Virus record (IMG/VR): IMGVR_UViG_2718217885_000006
Direction: 5' to 3' (one strand)
DNA length: 45,337 nt
Source of the DNA: a virus
Taxonomy: Duplodnaviria; Heunggongvirae; Uroviricota; Caudoviricetes
Below, piece after piece: positions 16,298 to 24,387 of this stretch (its first letter is position 1; every line of letters begins with the position of its first letter). A model generated the notes under the pieces. That model saw only the letters and a program-made list of their open reading frames with translations, searched no databases and had not been told where the DNA came from. A program made the translations under genes and the position numbers.

Positions 16298-17869
16298 ATG
16301 GACACCTCACTTGCTCATGAGAATGCCCGCCTGCGGGCACTGTTGCAGACACAACAGGACACCATCCGCCAGATGGCTGAATACAACCGCCTGCTCTCAC
16401 AGCGGGTGGCGGCTTATGCTTCCGAAATCAACCGGCTGAAGGCGCTGGTTGCGAAACTGCAGCGTATGCAGTTCGGTAAAAGCTCAGAAAAACTTCGTGC
16501 AAAAACCGAACGGCAGATACAGGAAGCACAGGAGCGAATCAGCGCACTTCAGGAAGAAATGGCAGAAACGCTGGGTGAGCAATATGACCCGGCACTGCCA
16601 TCCCCCCTGCGCCAGTCTTCTGCCCGTAAACCGTTACCGACCTCACTTCCCCGTGAAACCCGGGTTATCCGGCCGGAAGAGGAATGCTGCCCGGCCTGTG
16701 GTGGCGAACTCAGTTCTCTGGGATGTGATGTGTCAGAGCAACTGGAGCTTATCAGCAGCGCCTTTAAGGTTATCGAAGCACAACGTCCGAAACTGGCCTG
16801 TTGCCGGTGCGACCATATCGTGCAGGCACCAGTACCTTCAAAACCCATTGCACGCAGTTATGCCGGAGCGGGGCTTCTGGCCCATGTTGTCACCGGGAAA
16901 TATGCAGACCATCTGCCGTTATACCGCCAGTCAGAAATATACCGTCGCCAGGGCGTGGAGCTGAGCCGCGCCACGCTGGGGCGCTGGACAGGTGCCGTTG
17001 CTGAACTGCTGGAGCCGCTGTATGACGTCCTGCGCCAGTATGTGCTGATGCCCGGTAAAGTCCATGCCGATGATATCCCCGTCCCGGTCCAGGAGCCGGG
17101 CAGTGGTAAAACAAGGACTGCCCGGCTGTGGGTCTACGTCCGTGATGACCGTAACGCCGGTTCACAGATGCCTCCGGCGGTCTGGTTCGCGTACAGCCCG
17201 GACCGGAAAGGCGTCCATCCACAGAATCATCTGGCCGGTTACAGCGGTGTGCTTCAGGCCGATGCTTACGGTGGTTACCGGGTGTTATACGAATCCGGCA
17301 GAATAACGGAAGCCGCGTGTATGGCTCATGCCCGGAGAAAAATCCACGATGTGCATGCAAGAGTGCCCACCGACATCACCACGGAAGCCCTGCAGCGTAT
17401 CGGTGAACTGTATGCCATAGAGGCAGAAGTCCGGGGATGTACAGCAGAACAGCGTCTGGCGGCAAGAAAAGCCAGAGCTGCGCCACTGATGCAGTCACTG
17501 TATGACTGGATACAGACTCAGATGAAAACACTGTCGCGTCACTCGGATACGGCAAAAGCGTTCGCATACCTGCTGAAACAGTGGGATGGCCTGAACGTGT
17601 ACTGCAGTAATGGCCAGGTGGAAATCGACAACAACATCGCAGAGAACGCCTTACGGGGAGTGGCCGTAGGCCGGAAAAACTGGCTCTTCGCGGGTTCCGA
17701 CAGCGGTGGCGAACATGCGGCGGTGTTGTACTCGCTGATCGGCACATGCCGTCTGAACAATGTGGAACCAGAAAAATGGCTGCGTTACGTCATTGAGCAT
17801 ATCCAGGACTGGCCGGCAAACCGGGTACGCGATCTGTTGCCCTGGAAAGTTGATCTGACCTCTCAGTAA
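16298..17869 (+). CDS. IS66-family transposase TnpC
   Basis: 523 aa; N-terminal leucine-zipper-like region, CxxC...CxxC zinc-ribbon (CPACGG ... CCRCDH), DDE-type catalytic region. Confidence 0.85.
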
Positions 17870-18853: not shown

Positions 18854-19189
18854 TTATGGCCTGTGTCGTTTTAGTCCGTAGGGGCATATTTGCAGAATGC
18901 AACGGTTATTAAAGCATTCATTAAATACGTTATCTGAATTTGCAGGGCATTCCTGGCTGTTTTTGATTAAATCCCAGAATCTTTTATTGAATGGTACAAC
19001 GTTGTAAATGGTTACAGGTAGCACTTTGTTATTGAGTACGATACCTGTGTGAGTCAGCGTAAATATACTTTCAGGAGGTAAGAAAACATCCGATTGATAC
19101 CAGATTATTAATTTTATTTTACTCCATATGGCTGAAAAAGATATTCCACATGATGGCTGGATAACTGTATCAATCACAATCCACTTCAT
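18854..19189 (-). CDS. hypothetical protein (111 aa) in AT-rich island
   Basis: ATG with AAGGA SD 6-7 nt upstream; opposite strand to surrounding late genes; long AT-rich upstream region 19190-19435. Confidence 0.4.
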
Positions 19190-20754: not shown

Positions 20755-21069
20755 TTATCTGTTGCCGGATAATCGACGGAAGATGCGTTCTTTTTGTGAT
20801 TTGGCGTAATGATGATCCCACTCACATTCAAGGTAGTTTAATTCTTCGTTTAACCAGTCATTTATATTGTCTTTCAGACGTAGAAGCATGGCTGGTGTTA
20901 ATATTCTGGACATAATGTCGAGAGTTGGTGGTGTGAGGTGTCCATACGGTTCAGCCTGAATGGATTTTACTGCTTCGTGGTTTTGCTGAATGAGTTTAAG
21001 GAATGCTGATTTAAATTGTTCATTCATGGCCTGCATGCAGGCGGTATATTTATGTTCATCGTTATACAT
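20755..21069 (-). CDS. hypothetical protein (about 104 aa), convergent with preceding gene
   Basis: Start chosen at ATG (MYNDEHKY...) with GAGGA SD 8-9 nt upstream; the track ORF extends to a GTG at 21123. Confidence 0.45.
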   Translation of the reverse strand: MYNDEHKYTACMQAMNEQFKSAFLKLIQQNHEAVKSIQAEPYGHLTPPTLDIMSRILTPAMLLRLKDNINDWLNEELNYLECEWDHHYAKSQKERIFRRLSGNR

Positions 21070-21197
21070 TGCTAAATCCTCGACGGGAATTGTCAGATAT
21101 ATTTCAGCCATCAGGTAAAACACCAGTGCCCACCACTGGCGGGCTGAAGACTTAACATATCCAGGGATTCGGAACCGATAAATCCTGATAAATATCC

Positions 21198-22485: not shown

Positions 22486-22651
22486 ACATTTCGCAGGGTA
22501 TGGGATTGCAGTTAATGGTGAGTTACTGGAAGGGCAGCTTTCCGCCAGGACAGAGTCACGCGGAGGCGAGCCACCAACCGTCACTGTGACTTTCAGACTG
22601 ACAGCAGAACATATCGAGAATCAGCCCGTCATTAAACTGAACAGGGTGTGA
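22451..22651 (+). CDS. hypothetical protein (66 aa)
   Basis: ATG with AGGAGG SD 6 nt upstream; overlaps the end of the preceding ORF. Confidence 0.4.
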   Translation: MNYQLAKLYRGKHFAGYGIAVNGELLEGQLSARTESRGGEPPTVTVTFRLTAEHIENQPVIKLNRV

Positions 22652-22660
22652 GGTATATTT

Positions 22661-23011
22661 ATGCCATCACGAATCCCACGCGCCTGCCGTAAGCGTGGAT
22701 GTGCAGGTACAACCACAGACAGTTCTGGTTACTGCGATAAACATCGTGGCGAAGGATGGGTACAGCATCAACGCGGACTGAGCCGCCACCAGCGTGGCTA
22801 TGGCTCGAAATGGGATGCCATACGTGCGCGCATACTGAAGCGTGATAATCATCTGTGTCAGAACTGTCTGCGCAATGGACGAGCCGTTGAGGCCAGGACT
22901 GTAGACCACATTATCCCAAAAGCTCATGGTGGCACTGATGATGATTCCAATCTTGAGTCGTTATGCTGGGAATGCCACAGAGTGAAGACAGCAAGAGAAC
23001 ATATTCGATGA
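22661..23011 (+). CDS. HNH endonuclease (terminase-associated)
   Basis: 116 aa; Cys-rich zinc-binding and HNH motifs (CQNC ... VDHIIPKAHGG ... NLESLCWECH); located just upstream of the terminase genes. Confidence 0.85.
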   Translation: MPSRIPRACRKRGCAGTTTDSSGYCDKHRGEGWVQHQRGLSRHQRGYGSKWDAIRARILKRDNHLCQNCLRNGRAVEARTVDHIIPKAHGGTDDDSNLESLCWECHRVKTAREHIR

Positions 23012-23146
23012 TAATATTCACTGCTGTAATGCATAAAAATAGTTTCTACATTCATGCAGATACCCGGAAGGAATTTTGGGTTGTTTTAAGTAAAAAGCTG
23101 GGGTGGGGCAAATTTGAGTTAATTCGCCCCTCAGATGAGTTTAGCC

Positions 23147-23662
23147 CTACTGGAGGGTTGTTTGAATTAGTCGAAGTGCGTTCGGCAGATTCAGAGCCCC
23201 CTGAGTCAGTAACTGTAGGGTCAAATGTTTTATGGCGTCTCCCGGAAGCTCTCGGAGTTTTGAAATCAATCCCTTCTTCTGATCTTCAGGTATATTTGCA
23301 ACACGGATTATATCCTCAAGGGCAACAATCGTGTCATTGTGTAACCGAACGGTTTGAACTTTAAGGATCGCACTTAAGCCGCCATCATCAAGAAGAAAAT
23401 CAATTCCTTTCTCTGTAATGTTGCAGTACGGGGCATTGAAGATAAAATCAACGCCATCCATGGTATCGCTGCGTACGAAGGGTGTAGAAACGAGACCATG
23501 CATTTCAAGGTATAACATGCACGCCACAAAGTGATCATAGCTGTCAAATTTCTCAATAAGGTCTTGTTCCTGTGCCTTGTTTAAAGAGTTAGGAGCACAA
23601 TCTATAAGGGCGTTGAGGATTTCAAGTTGTAAGGTTCTGTCATATTTTCTGGTTTTATCCAT
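23147..23662 (-). CDS. hypothetical protein (171 aa), reverse-oriented moron
   Basis: Well-formed helical ORF on the opposite strand between HNH and terS; GGAG SD; AT-rich relative to flanking structural genes. Confidence 0.5.
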   Translation of the reverse strand: MDKTRKYDRTLQLEILNALIDCAPNSLNKAQEQDLIEKFDSYDHFVACMLYLEMHGLVSTPFVRSDTMDGVDFIFNAPYCNITEKGIDFLLDDGGLSAILKVQTVRLHNDTIVALEDIIRVANIPEDQKKGLISKLRELPGDAIKHLTLQLLTQGALNLPNALRLIQTTLQ

Positions 23663-23904
23663 TTCTTAGACTCCATCGTTTATTTATTGAGATTAACTGA
23701 AGACATCATGCTGAGCATCCTGATGGATGACCAGTATCTTCTTTTTGCGTGATTTCTTGCTGCCATCTTCAGGGGGGAGGGGGGGATCAAATCCCTGACG
23801 CCTTTCGCGCTTCAGGACCGCCGCCTGACCCTTCCTCATATCGCCGCAGGTTCGAAAACTTTTTTTTGGAAATGTGAACAAACGATTGATAGGTAAGACC
23901 GATT

Positions 23905-24387
23905 ATGTCAGGACCTCCGAAAACCCCGCCACGCCTGCATTTGATTCGAGGCAACCCCTCAAAGCGCCCCGTTAAAGACCACAAAAAAACCGCTAAAAAG
24001 GATGAAAAAGGTCTTCCTAAAATTCCGCAGCATTTAGGGGCTCAGGGGAAGTACTGGTTCAGGCGAATGGCGGAAGAGCTGAATGCGGAAGGGATCATTT
24101 CTCAGCTTGATGCGCGTGCGCTCGAGTTGCTGGTGGAAGCCTACACCGAATATCGGCATCACTGCGAAACACTCGATGTTGAGGGGTATACCTACCGCAC
24201 GGAAACGCAGAGCGGTGATGTACTGATTAAGGCGCACCCCGCGGCGGCAATGAAAGCGGATGCCTGGAAGCGGATCCGGGCAATGCTTGCAGAGTTTGGT
24301 ATGTCACCGGCAAGCCGGGCTAAAGTAAATATCGCCGGACCGGATGATGTTGATCCGCTGGCGGAGCTTTTAAAAGCGAGAGACTGA
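23905..24387 (+). CDS. terminase small subunit (P27/HK97-type)
   Basis: 160 aa immediately upstream of and overlapping the large terminase start; basic N-terminus. Confidence 0.75.
   Translation: MSGPPKTPPRLHLIRGNPSKRPVKDHKKTAKKDEKGLPKIPQHLGAQGKYWFRRMAEELNAEGIISQLDARALELLVEAYTEYRHHCETLDVEGYTYRTETQSGDVLIKAHPAAAMKADAWKRIRAMLAEFGMSPASRAKVNIAGPDDVDPLAELLKARD

Follow-up and report, generated by a model that had tools for sequence, protein, structure and literature searches.

In phage P22, the sieB/esc/sas region combines a gene for exclusion with an overlapping product that provides self-escape and a switch based on antisense RNA; the partner of the exclusion gene is an in-frame internal product read from the same strand, and the antisense RNA does not encode a protein. 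The term moron reportedly arose from the comparison of HK97 with HK022 and is said to denote independent transcription units inserted in late operons. Long antisense overlaps of two conserved protein genes have rarely been established in bacteria or phages, and standard annotation suppresses such overlaps; the antisense overlapping genes of E. coli O157:H7 are for the most part young, restricted to narrow taxonomic ranges, and embedded over their full length (PMC9927249). In HK97 the genome end has been mapped experimentally, and the TerS binding site, which includes an A-tract, lies at +15 to +29 from the cut (PMC11331095). Here we analyzed a prophage locus in a window of 45,337 nucleotides (the whole stretch of DNA under study), in which sequence comparison places a widely conserved antisense gene pair just upstream of an HK97-type cos. 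The reading that we favor, with a probability of about 0.6, is that a mobile convergent two-gene moron, consisting of the genes ORF171 and ORF-A, lies here with an HK97-type cos to its right, and that expression of its two genes would be mutually exclusive.

The locus forms part of an HK97-like packaging module with the gene order HNH, cos, terS, terL, and portal, accompanied by HK97-type head genes, and its cos region falls between the genes for the HNH protein and the small terminase. The HNH endonuclease gene (22661-23011, plus strand; PF01844, E = 1.5e-16; phrog_144) encodes a protein with 43% identity to HK97 gp74 over 47 aa (E = 2e-11), and it is followed on the same strand by the small-terminase gene terS of the P27 family (23905-24387; PF05119, E = 2.3e-25; phrog_83). 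The distance from the HNH stop codon to the terS ATG is 893 bp here versus ~148 bp in most relatives, and the HNH–terS region holds a true insert in this prophage: a two-gene cassette of 745 bp between HNH and cos, the right boundary of which adjoins a G tract. The HNH gene, the block from the G tract to terS, and terS itself are common to ~1000 E. coli genomes, and only 26-27 of the 5426 E. coli genomes carry ORF171. G+C content is 0.37-0.44 across 23000-23800 versus 0.50-0.58 in the flanks. The coordinates of record NZ_CP015228 are non-collinear with the window away from the locus, and this record was left unused for distant features. The cassette is moron-like in its presence or absence between otherwise collinear prophages and in its deviant base composition, and it occupies many sites in other phages. 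A preliminary description had placed a 171-aa minus-strand ORF in an AT-rich stretch between HNH and terS, considered it a possible moron, and proposed comparing related prophages for its presence or absence. Location, base composition, and moron-like behavior are borne out, the comparison finding 26-27 carriers among the ~1000 related E. coli prophages.

The minus-strand gene ORF171 (23147-23662; RefSeq hypothetical protein WP_000361882.1) starts with ATG, has a GGAG Shine-Dalgarno (SD) sequence 8 nt upstream (complement of 23671-23674), and is a real, conserved gene. The phrog_3983 HMM matches it over its full length (E = 1.9e-57; residues 5-171 against profile positions 2-164/165), and dN/dS is 0.03-0.4. 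Conserved homologs, for want of which the preliminary description would have abandoned the gene, number 1036 representatives at 50% identity. The domain search that it also proposed gave, apart from phrog_3983, no significant match in PADLOC (PADLOC-DB v2), Pfam, or NCBIfam, and no Pfam model scored above its gathering threshold, that of YjcQ (PF09639) included. The latter produced a subthreshold match in 8 of 57 ORF171 homologs (best E = 0.0054), and the PadR and MarR Pfam models gave no match at E ≤ 0.1 in any of the 57 family members. Searches of Rfam and of the literature with the accessions, the PHROG number, YjcQ, and DUF2513 returned nothing informative. One Acinetobacter phage record names its ORF171 homolog a “putative transcriptional regulator.”

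A confident predicted model folds ORF171 residues 1-92 into an acidic, YjcQ/PadR-like winged helix, followed by a conserved helical C-domain at residues 105-171 (LRELPADAIKHLTLQLL) that is unique to the family and partly dual-coded. The N-domain has a mean net charge of -6.4 and a pI of ~4.8; K6, R9, and Q12 vary little or not at all, and Lys and Arg make up 4% of the recognition helix and 7% of the wing. An acidic winged helix with so few basic residues in its recognition helix argues against a conventional repressor. A resemblance between residues 103-145 and the staphylococcal protein A B domain was considered and rejected: its significance was only apparent, because repeats had been summed, and single-domain E-values exceed 0.1. 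The 5′ region of ORF171 (23663-23771, minus strand) includes the SD site and presumably the gene's own promoter, and no sigma-70 consensus promoter was found upstream of the gene. It also contains the block TACTGGTCATCCATCAGGATG (complement of 23716-23736), which includes an inverted repeat, CATCC-N4-GGATG, and is partly conserved in the Enterobacter and Proteus copies.

ORF-A (23008-23364, plus strand; 118 aa) is unannotated and co-directional with the late operon, and its start shares the tetranucleotide ATGA at 23008-23011 with the TGA stop of the HNH gene. Its residues 1-46 lie outside ORF171, and residues 47-118 are encoded opposite ORF171 codons 100-171, giving a tail-to-tail, dual-coding overlap of 218 nt on both strands (23147-23364). 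The ORF-A peptide, its Met start, and its SD site are conserved in 20 loci, with homologs of 89-119 aa. The ~45 codons outside ORF171 vary like coding sequence, nucleotide diversity in the 43 non-overlapping codons being 0.414, 0.295, and 0.627 at codon positions 1, 2, and 3. An AF2 model predicted from database sequences has pLDDT 88-96 over residues 1-70 and comprises a five-strand beta domain (residues 3-58), whose strand 5 is encoded within the overlap, followed by helices at 78-100. On the evidence of the conserved Met, the SD site, and the coding-type variation, ORF-A appears to be a real gene. The stretch adjoining ORF171 had initially been described as non-coding and as the probable site of cos; this holds on the side of the G tract, which belongs to cos, but on the other side 23012-23146 is the 5′ half of ORF-A. 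Nor does the plus-strand ORF at 23008-23364 displace the minus-strand gene, as had been envisaged, since both genes of the convergent pair appear to be real. A hairpin at 23101-23126 (z = -2.1), at first read as a terminator for ORF171, a role that it may still have, sits within ORF-A, and its conservation is explained by this coding sequence.

ORF-A had already been called by gene callers in 85 public protein clusters, and loci L053-L055 have calls for both members of the pair. It has no match in Pfam, PHROG, or PDB sequences, and a PADLOC search with its family found only PDC-M06B, at E of at least 0.0047 and in 4 of 65 members; neither ORF-A nor ORF171 matches any family of known function in the databases searched. 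ORF-A is without annotation in RefSeq at this locus and in the phage GenBank records examined, and ORF171 is the only annotated gene of the pair in RefSeq and GenBank. This annotation, together with the lack of a PHROG or Pfam family for ORF-A, would fit a single reverse moron gene, with a plus-strand ORF open by chance and a left flank devoid of coding sequence. A first antisense-stop scan also suggested that the frame is not conserved, a conclusion that was rejected, the scan having revealed only variation in where ORF-A stops (sense codons 101-130). Against a chance frame stand the conserved frame, Met, SD site, and peptide of ORF-A, the coding periodicity of its codons outside ORF171, its confident AF2 fold, and the tests of the overlap described below, and we give the single-gene explanation next to no credence.

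Third-position diversity of ORF171 is lowered only where ORF-A overlaps it, being 0.322 inside the overlap versus 0.670 outside and, for the homologous stretch in a sister subfamily that lacks ORF-A, 0.715. Within the overlap, identity is 0.552 in the ORF-A frame against a null of 0.225 ± 0.009 and 0.647 in the ORF171 frame against 0.198 ± 0.009, under null models that ignore shared ancestry and with third positions outside the overlap near saturation. Each frame is far more conserved than constraint from the other frame alone would give. The antisense frame is open in ~1% of synonymous shuffles versus 14 of 15 real sequences, and diverged homologs keep both frames open and conserve their start and length; the part of the overlap present in all homologs is only that over ORF171 residues 130-170. 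Recombination mosaicism as a source of the low dS in the C-terminal half of ORF171 was rejected, because the adjacent ORF-A-only codons are near-saturated at third positions and the subfamily lacking ORF-A shows no drop. At the level of sequence comparison, these results show purifying selection on both reading frames within the overlap.

A convergent ORF171 homolog was found beside ORF-A in all 80 of the viral contigs with ORF-A (80/80), with overlaps of 146-314 nt, and the pair occurs across phages of Enterobacterales, Acinetobacter, and Pseudomonas at unrelated insertion sites. Elsewhere the cassette sits between Q and holin, between tape measure and gpM, at a prophage end, or beside cI. 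In 56 distinct contexts, the first long ORF is on the strand of ORF-A upstream in 40 and downstream in 44. In AbIPP1, ORF171 is found downstream of cI, and in GF-2 its translation is coupled to that of an Arc/Mnt-like gene. The unit is a mobile convergent overlapping gene pair, rather than one reverse gene. ORF171-type proteins also occur without ORF-A (L045-L050), and each gene of the pair is occasionally disrupted alone (L035, L040, and L044), ORF-A persisting where ORF171 is frameshifted (L035 and L044); the pair is therefore not strictly interdependent.

A sister subfamily that does without ORF-A would also fit two functionally unrelated genes whose 3′ ends overlap through compaction or overprinting only. 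ORF171 would then be an autoregulated, PadR-like transcription factor with targets among host or phage promoters, ORF-A would be an accessory late protein, and their antisense overlap would play no part in regulation. The predicted PadR/MarR/YjcQ-like fold and PadR-like two-domain size of ORF171 suit this explanation, as do the conserved inverted repeat upstream of the gene and the regulator label in the Acinetobacter phage record. We consider it unlikely in view of the pairing in 80/80 contigs from several host groups at unrelated insertion sites. Moreover, an overlap of 128-314 nt heavily constrains both proteins and, if neutral, would be expected to resolve quickly, and the acidic winged helix has few basic residues on the usual DNA-contact elements.

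To the right of the cassette, the G tract GGGGGGAGGGGGGG lies on the plus strand at exactly 23772-23785, as first described, and is followed by ATCAAATC. It is conserved in HK97, mEp235, Fraca, and ~1000 E. coli prophages, and in a five-phage alignment the G tract, TCAAA, and ACCGCCGCC are invariant. The G tract, TCAAA, ~24 nt, and GACCGCCGCC align with the right end of HK97, the record of which ends in ...GACCGCCGCCAAA and starts with GTTTGAAT..., placing the genome end 3 nt past the ACCGCCGCC core; the published base numbering (T16 and C:G at 21) agrees with this record (PMC11331095). The alignment of the G-tract region with the experimentally defined end of the HK97 genome assigns this region, suspected from the start to contain cos, to that site, and homology shows the G tract to belong to an HK97-type cos as a conserved upstream element; no role for the G tract was described in the HK97-type cos literature that we found. 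The predicted cosN occupies 23817-23828 on the plus strand, with the ACCGCCGCC core at 23817-23825. Cleavage is expected between 23828 and 23829, leaving a 10-nt 3′ overhang of approximately CGCCGCCTGA (23819-23828) and placing the G tract ~44-57 nt upstream. The post-cut block at 23829-23904 on the plus strand (CATATCGCCGCAGGTTCGAAAACTTTTTTTTGG...) is conserved among phages with a P27-type TerS but not in HK97, and BLASTP found no similarity between the TerS encoded here and HK97 gp1. By analogy with the HK97 TerS site, this block is a candidate TerS-binding region; its A/T tract at 23854-23867 is at +26 to +39 from the predicted cut, 10 nt farther than in HK97.

The 45-kb window contains only two GGGGNGGGG sites, one at each end of the insert, and the right insert boundary abuts the G tract. 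On this basis, the G tract and its surroundings could, instead of being cos, belong to the cassette and serve in transcription or insertion, for example as a terminator or recombination scar. This is very improbable, since ~1000 prophages without the cassette carry the G tract, ATCAAATC, and ACCGCCGCC, as does HK97, where the genome ends 3 nt beyond the core. The left G-rich motif (23100-23108), within CTGGGGTGGGGCAAATTT at 23098-23115 on the plus strand, was likewise rejected as a degenerate copy or relic of the cos G tract, because it encodes LGWGKF of ORF-A, in which G32, W33, G34, and F36 are nearly invariant, and because it accompanies the cassette to every other site and genomic context.

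For the convergent two-gene moron, the following mode of operation may be proposed. In the lysogen, ORF171 would be expressed from a promoter of its own at this locus and from a cI or mnt-like operon in other phages, and ORF-A would be made only once late transcription runs through; with polymerases converging and the mRNAs complementary over at least 128 nt, production of one protein would then preclude that of the other, and the overlap would also prevent separation of the two genes by recombination. The most likely role of ORF171 would be that of a lysogen-state exclusion or regulatory protein, with ORF-A as a late-expressed partner relieving or replacing it. We infer the mutual-exclusion switch and the exclusion and antagonist roles from gene orientation and neighbors only, and a part for ORF171 in exclusion or host interaction, as originally suggested, is a plausible guess. 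Possible, if on balance doubtful, is a self-contained, mobile toggle of the life cycle in which ORF171 would be a lysogen exclusion or defense effector that also harms the resident phage, ORF-A its late antagonist, and the overlap a device that enforces exclusivity and welds “poison” to “antidote.” If true, this would be a protein–protein version of the P22 sieB/esc/sas logic and would represent an unrecognized, widespread class of prophage cargo, hidden from annotation as one partner is never called.

The tight linkage and mobility of the genes could also point to a toxin–antitoxin or addiction pair, in which ORF-A would be a small beta-rich toxin and ORF171 an acidic antitoxin combining a winged helix with a C-terminal neutralizing domain, backed up by antisense RNA. 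ORF171 is acidic and two-domain, as are many antitoxins; ORF-A, with five strands and a C-terminal helix, has the size of CcdB/MazF-type toxins; and the convergent 3′ overlap resembles that of bsrG/SR4-type prophage type I systems. However, hhalign found no match of ORF-A to CcdB or MazF, neither PADLOC nor Pfam gave a toxin match, ORF-A is not basic, and ORF171 homologs occur without ORF-A. A toxin should not tolerate loss of its antitoxin, yet ORF-A is kept where ORF171 is frameshifted, and it has a good SD site within a strongly transcribed late operon. The genes are convergent, rather than forming the co-directional bicistron with a known toxin family that typifies type II systems. We regard an addiction pair as distinctly unlikely.

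ORF-A and ORF171 offer a clean system for protein evolution on opposite strands, with the sister subfamily lacking ORF-A as an internal control for overlap effects, and the pair is suited to asking whether a convergent overlap serves as a lysogeny/lysis expression switch. The ORF-A family, with at least 85 public clusters, is missing from PHROGs, from RefSeq at this locus, and from the GenBank phage records examined. With cos identified by homology, the packaging site is now predicted in a large group of P27/HK97-like E. coli prophages.

Among described proteins, those closest to ORF171 are phrog_3983 and the YjcQ (PF09639), DUF2513, and PadR-type winged-helix proteins; compared with YjcQ and PadR proteins, ORF171 is acidic (pI ~4.8), has a family-specific C-domain, and falls below Pfam thresholds. 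The locus shares with HK97 (PMC11331095 and PMC9410871) its gene order, a homologous HNH protein, and an aligned right end but differs in the sequence downstream of the predicted cut, in a TerS without BLASTP similarity to gp1, and in the 745-bp two-gene cassette between HNH and cos. Like morons, the cassette shows presence and absence, lower G+C, many insertion sites, and a gene opposing the late operon; it departs from the typical moron, a single gene between a promoter and a terminator of its own, in comprising two convergent genes that share 128-314 nt, one of them read with the late operon. For the proposed logic of the pair, P22 sieB/esc/sas would be the closest functional analogy, with a lysogen factor, an overlapping lytic partner, and antisense transcription choosing the product, but here both strands encode full proteins, and there is no sequence relationship. 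As in E. coli O157:H7 (PMC9927249), an ORF antisense to an annotated gene has been missed by annotation pipelines; the O157:H7 cases differ from this pair, whose genes overlap tail-to-tail over only part of their length and each retain an independent half outside the overlap, an arrangement conserved in several gammaproteobacterial orders.

A lambdoid E. coli prophage whose head genes are of the HK97 type makes up the window, which extends from an integrase at one end to tail fibres at the other; three sequenced E. coli chromosomes match positions 22600-24000 with 100% identity. Genes in this neighborhood run in the order lysozyme, Rz/Rz1, two small ORFs, HNH (22661-23011, +), ORF171 (23147-23662, -; 171 aa, with an ATG start and, 8 nt before it, a GGAG Shine-Dalgarno site), P27-family terS (23905-24387, +), terL, and portal, with a G tract, GGGGGGAGGGGGGG, at 23772-23785; the preliminary description had placed ORF171 and the tract exactly. 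Its AT-rich stretch is also borne out, with a G+C of 0.37-0.44 over 23000-23800 vs 0.50-0.58 in both flanks. Some 1000 E. coli genomes share HNH, terS, and the sequence from the G tract up to terS; ORF171 is present in only 26-27 of 5426, and the HNH stop lies 893 bp from the terS ATG in the window compared with ~148 bp in relatives such as APEC O1, strain 774, and CV839-06. By this comparison, the segment carrying ORF171 is an insert; this scattered presence, together with varied insertion sites in other phages, agrees with the earlier suggestion of a moron. The last ~7 codons of HNH read ...AREHIR* with the insert and ...ARERIN* without it (22990-23011 vs comparison loci L005-L007), which places the left recombination junction inside the HNH 3′ end. 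Upstream of ORF171, 12 nt (23747-23758, GCGTGATTTCTT) are missing from the alleles of PhiR49_2, 2014C-3075, and strain 61, the other E. coli copies.

ORF171 is a full-length match to phrog_3983 (E=1.9e-57), and its homologues, 180 of them word-indexed and 1036 as cluster representatives at 50% identity, come from phages of Escherichia, Edwardsiella, Klebsiella, Pseudomonas, Acinetobacter, and Halomonas. With a dN/dS between alleles of 0.03-0.4, the minus-strand ORF is a real gene, as had been proposed. The suggested domain search came back empty in Pfam, NCBIfam, and PADLOC, and no database match assigns the gene a likely function; sub-threshold Pfam matches to YjcQ, DUF2513, and the protein A B domain were seen in a minority of the family. 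The AlphaFold model has a mean pLDDT of 78.9, with a helical bundle of lower confidence at residues 105-171. An ordinary PadR-like regulator is a possible reading, and two automatic labels among the homologues, all others being "hypothetical", do say "transcriptional regulator". The winged helix of the family is consistently acidic (mean net charge -6.4, pI 4.8) and its recognition helix contains 4% Lys/Arg, which makes it doubtful that ORF171 binds DNA in the manner of a classical repressor.

When ORF171 homologues at unrelated sites of insertion were aligned over their 3′ flanks, ~100 nt proved unexpectedly conserved, because the antisense frame encodes a conserved ORF running into the ORF171 3′ end. 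In the window this ORF, ORF-A (23008-23364, +), encodes 118 aa, and its start codon and the HNH stop codon overlap in the sequence ATGA, an arrangement created by the left junction. The conserved peptide is MKIFTA..H.NGFFI.AD...DFWV.LS..LGWGKF.LIR.S.EFS..GGLFEL.E.R...S.PPE.V..GSNVLWRLPEALEVLKS. Across 20 loci, ORF-A is 89-119 aa long (156 aa in Pseudomonas), has 39-51 codons wholly outside ORF171 (85 in Pseudomonas), and overlaps it by 128-230 nt; GAGG or GGAGG lies 5-9 nt 5′ of the Met in nearly all copies, and among homologues the frame is kept and only the stop position varies. A G-rich motif at 23100-23108, considered as a relic of cos, was rejected, as it encodes the GWG of ORF-A.

Nucleotide diversity at codon positions 1/2/3 of the nonoverlapping ORF-A residues 2-44 is 0.414/0.295/0.627, a coding signature. 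Third positions of ORF171 are second positions of ORF-A in the overlap, and ORF171 diversity is 0.454/0.359/0.670 outside it, 0.428/0.255/0.626 where only the variable ORF-A tail overlaps, and 0.316/0.186/0.322 where the conserved part does. In a sister ORF171 subfamily (L045-L048; 36-38% identity) with no ORF-A anywhere within 1.5 kb, the homologous stretch keeps the normal pattern (0.462/0.355/0.715). When ORF171 synonymous codons were shuffled and the antisense frame was scored over the last 42 codons, it stayed open in ~1% of shuffles, vs 14 of 15 real sequences. Over the 41-codon common overlap, pairwise identity is 0.552 in the ORF-A frame against a null of 0.225+/-0.009 in which only the ORF171 protein is conserved, and 0.647 in the ORF171 frame against 0.198+/-0.009 in which only ORF-A is; these reciprocal nulls ignore shared ancestry, though outside the overlap the third positions come close to saturation. 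AlphaFold, using 65 sequences, modeled ORF-A with a pLDDT of 88-96 for residues 1-70, as five beta strands, the fifth encoded within the overlap, followed by helices at 78-100 and a disordered tail. Together, these data show that two conserved genes overlap tail-to-tail with both frames constrained, and they contradict a reading of ORF171 as the only gene.

ORF-A was unannotated in the phage GenBank records examined, and no relative was detected in Pfam, PHROG, PADLOC, or PDB sequences. Public pipelines had called it in 85 protein clusters, all hypothetical and ~100 aa, including Klebsiella, Salmonella, Yersinia, and Acinetobacter, and in three loci (L053-L055) both genes were called, with an overlap of 161 nt. 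A convergent ORF171 homologue (overlap 146-314 nt) accompanies ORF-A in every one of the 80 IMG/VR contigs retrieved with it. The preliminary description was right about a real gene, a moron, and a cos site, and wrong in treating the plus-strand ORF as an alternative to ORF171: by conserved peptide, coding tests, and linkage, both are genes. ORF171 is apparently frameshifted beside an intact ORF-A in Citrobacter werkmanii (L035) and Providencia stuartii (L044), and in Kluyvera cryocrescens (L040) an intact ORF171 stands beside an ORF-A cut to 41 codons, through sequencing error or true decay. The ORF-A-less subfamily (Serratia grimesii, Limnobaculum, Silvania, and Enterobacter sp., L045-L048; also L049 and L050) shares the winged helix and a GIDF..DGG..AILNVQT core and differs at the C-terminal end, which suggests an older family of single genes that either gained ORF-A or lost it. 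In the PhiR49_2 record (L021, PV340570.1), the HNH gene is unannotated, a 61-aa minus-strand "hypothetical protein" is called within its coordinates (3007-3192), and a small, probably spurious plus-strand ORF is called across the G tract and cos (4063-4212).

ORF171 homologues lie opposite the late genes between antiterminator Q and holin in Salmonella, between the tape measure gene and gpM in Proteus, among tail-region morons in Serratia, and at a prophage end in Enterobacter. The homologue of Acinetobacter phage AbIPP1 follows cI on the same strand, and the start of that of Edwardsiella phage GF-2 overlaps the stop of an Arc/Mnt-like gene diverging from arc-ant. Such contexts fit a moron whose expression occurs in the lysogen. 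Among 56 distinct contexts, the nearest long ORF lies on the ORF-A strand in 40 on the upstream side and in 44 on the downstream side, so ORF-A would ride the late or structural operon while ORF171 opposes it or joins the lysogenic operon. The gene neighborhoods show a pair that moves as one unit, its orientation set relative to both operons. ORF171 is not the sole gene opposing the late operon, since two further reverse ORFs lie in the late/lysis region (18854-19189 and 20755-21111, both -); an identical E. coli record names one anti-adapter protein IraM and the other hypothetical. Three consecutive ORFs at 15281-17869 (+; 216, 115, and 523 aa) resemble, by size and order only, IS66-family tnpA/tnpB/tnpC of the related NZ_CP015228 prophage, which is not collinear with the window there (coordinates ~2.2 kb apart).

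The HK97 record ends in ...GGGCAGGGGGGGGGATCAAATC(24 nt)TGACCGCCGCCAAA and starts with GTTTGAATTT...; the way bases are numbered in PMC11331095 (T16, C:G at 21, followed by an A-tract) agrees with this and makes the first base of the record +1 relative to cleavage. In the window, APEC O1, mEp235, and Fraca, the G tract, TCAAA, and an unvarying core, ACCGCCGCC (23817-23825, single copy in the window), line up with the HK97 genome end, upholding the earlier proposal of cos near the tract and contradicting a reading in which the G tract is not cos. By homology, the predicted cut is at 23828/23829, with a predicted 10-nt 3′ overhang of ~CGCCGCCTGA and the G tract at -57 to -44. HK97 diverges 3′ of the cut, whereas CATCGCCGCAGGTTCGAAAACTTTTTTTT is common to the phages whose TerS is of the P27 type, in keeping with a window TerS that has no BLASTP similarity to HK97 gp1 alongside homologous HNH proteins. 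The cos site, assigned by homology, lies to the right of the insert. In each phage, the final Gs of the tract can base-pair with a short run of Cs a few bases 3′ (window 23772-23795; L010 1899-1935; L020 780-810), as GGGAT-CAA-ATCCC in the window and GGGTC...GACCC in mEp235, a hairpin-like feature that survives sequence change.

The late transcript of the window would read HNH, ORF-A, ORF171 in antisense, and then cos and terS. We propose that the lysogen transcribes ORF171 and that ORF-A is reached by late read-through; converging transcription, with at least 128 nt over which the RNAs are complementary, would then allow only one of the two to be expressed at a time. ORF171 may then be an exclusion or regulatory protein of the lysogenic state and ORF-A a late partner relieving or replacing it, the overlap preventing their separation. 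A toxin-antitoxin-like pair is also possible; hhalign of ORF-A against CcdB and MazF was negative. The two may also be unrelated genes whose overlap has no regulatory meaning. The predictions of the proposed model are clear and testable. What stands out is that ORF171 has an antisense partner gene, widely conserved and unannotated: morons and overlapping genes are already known kinds, and the pair is a new variant of them.
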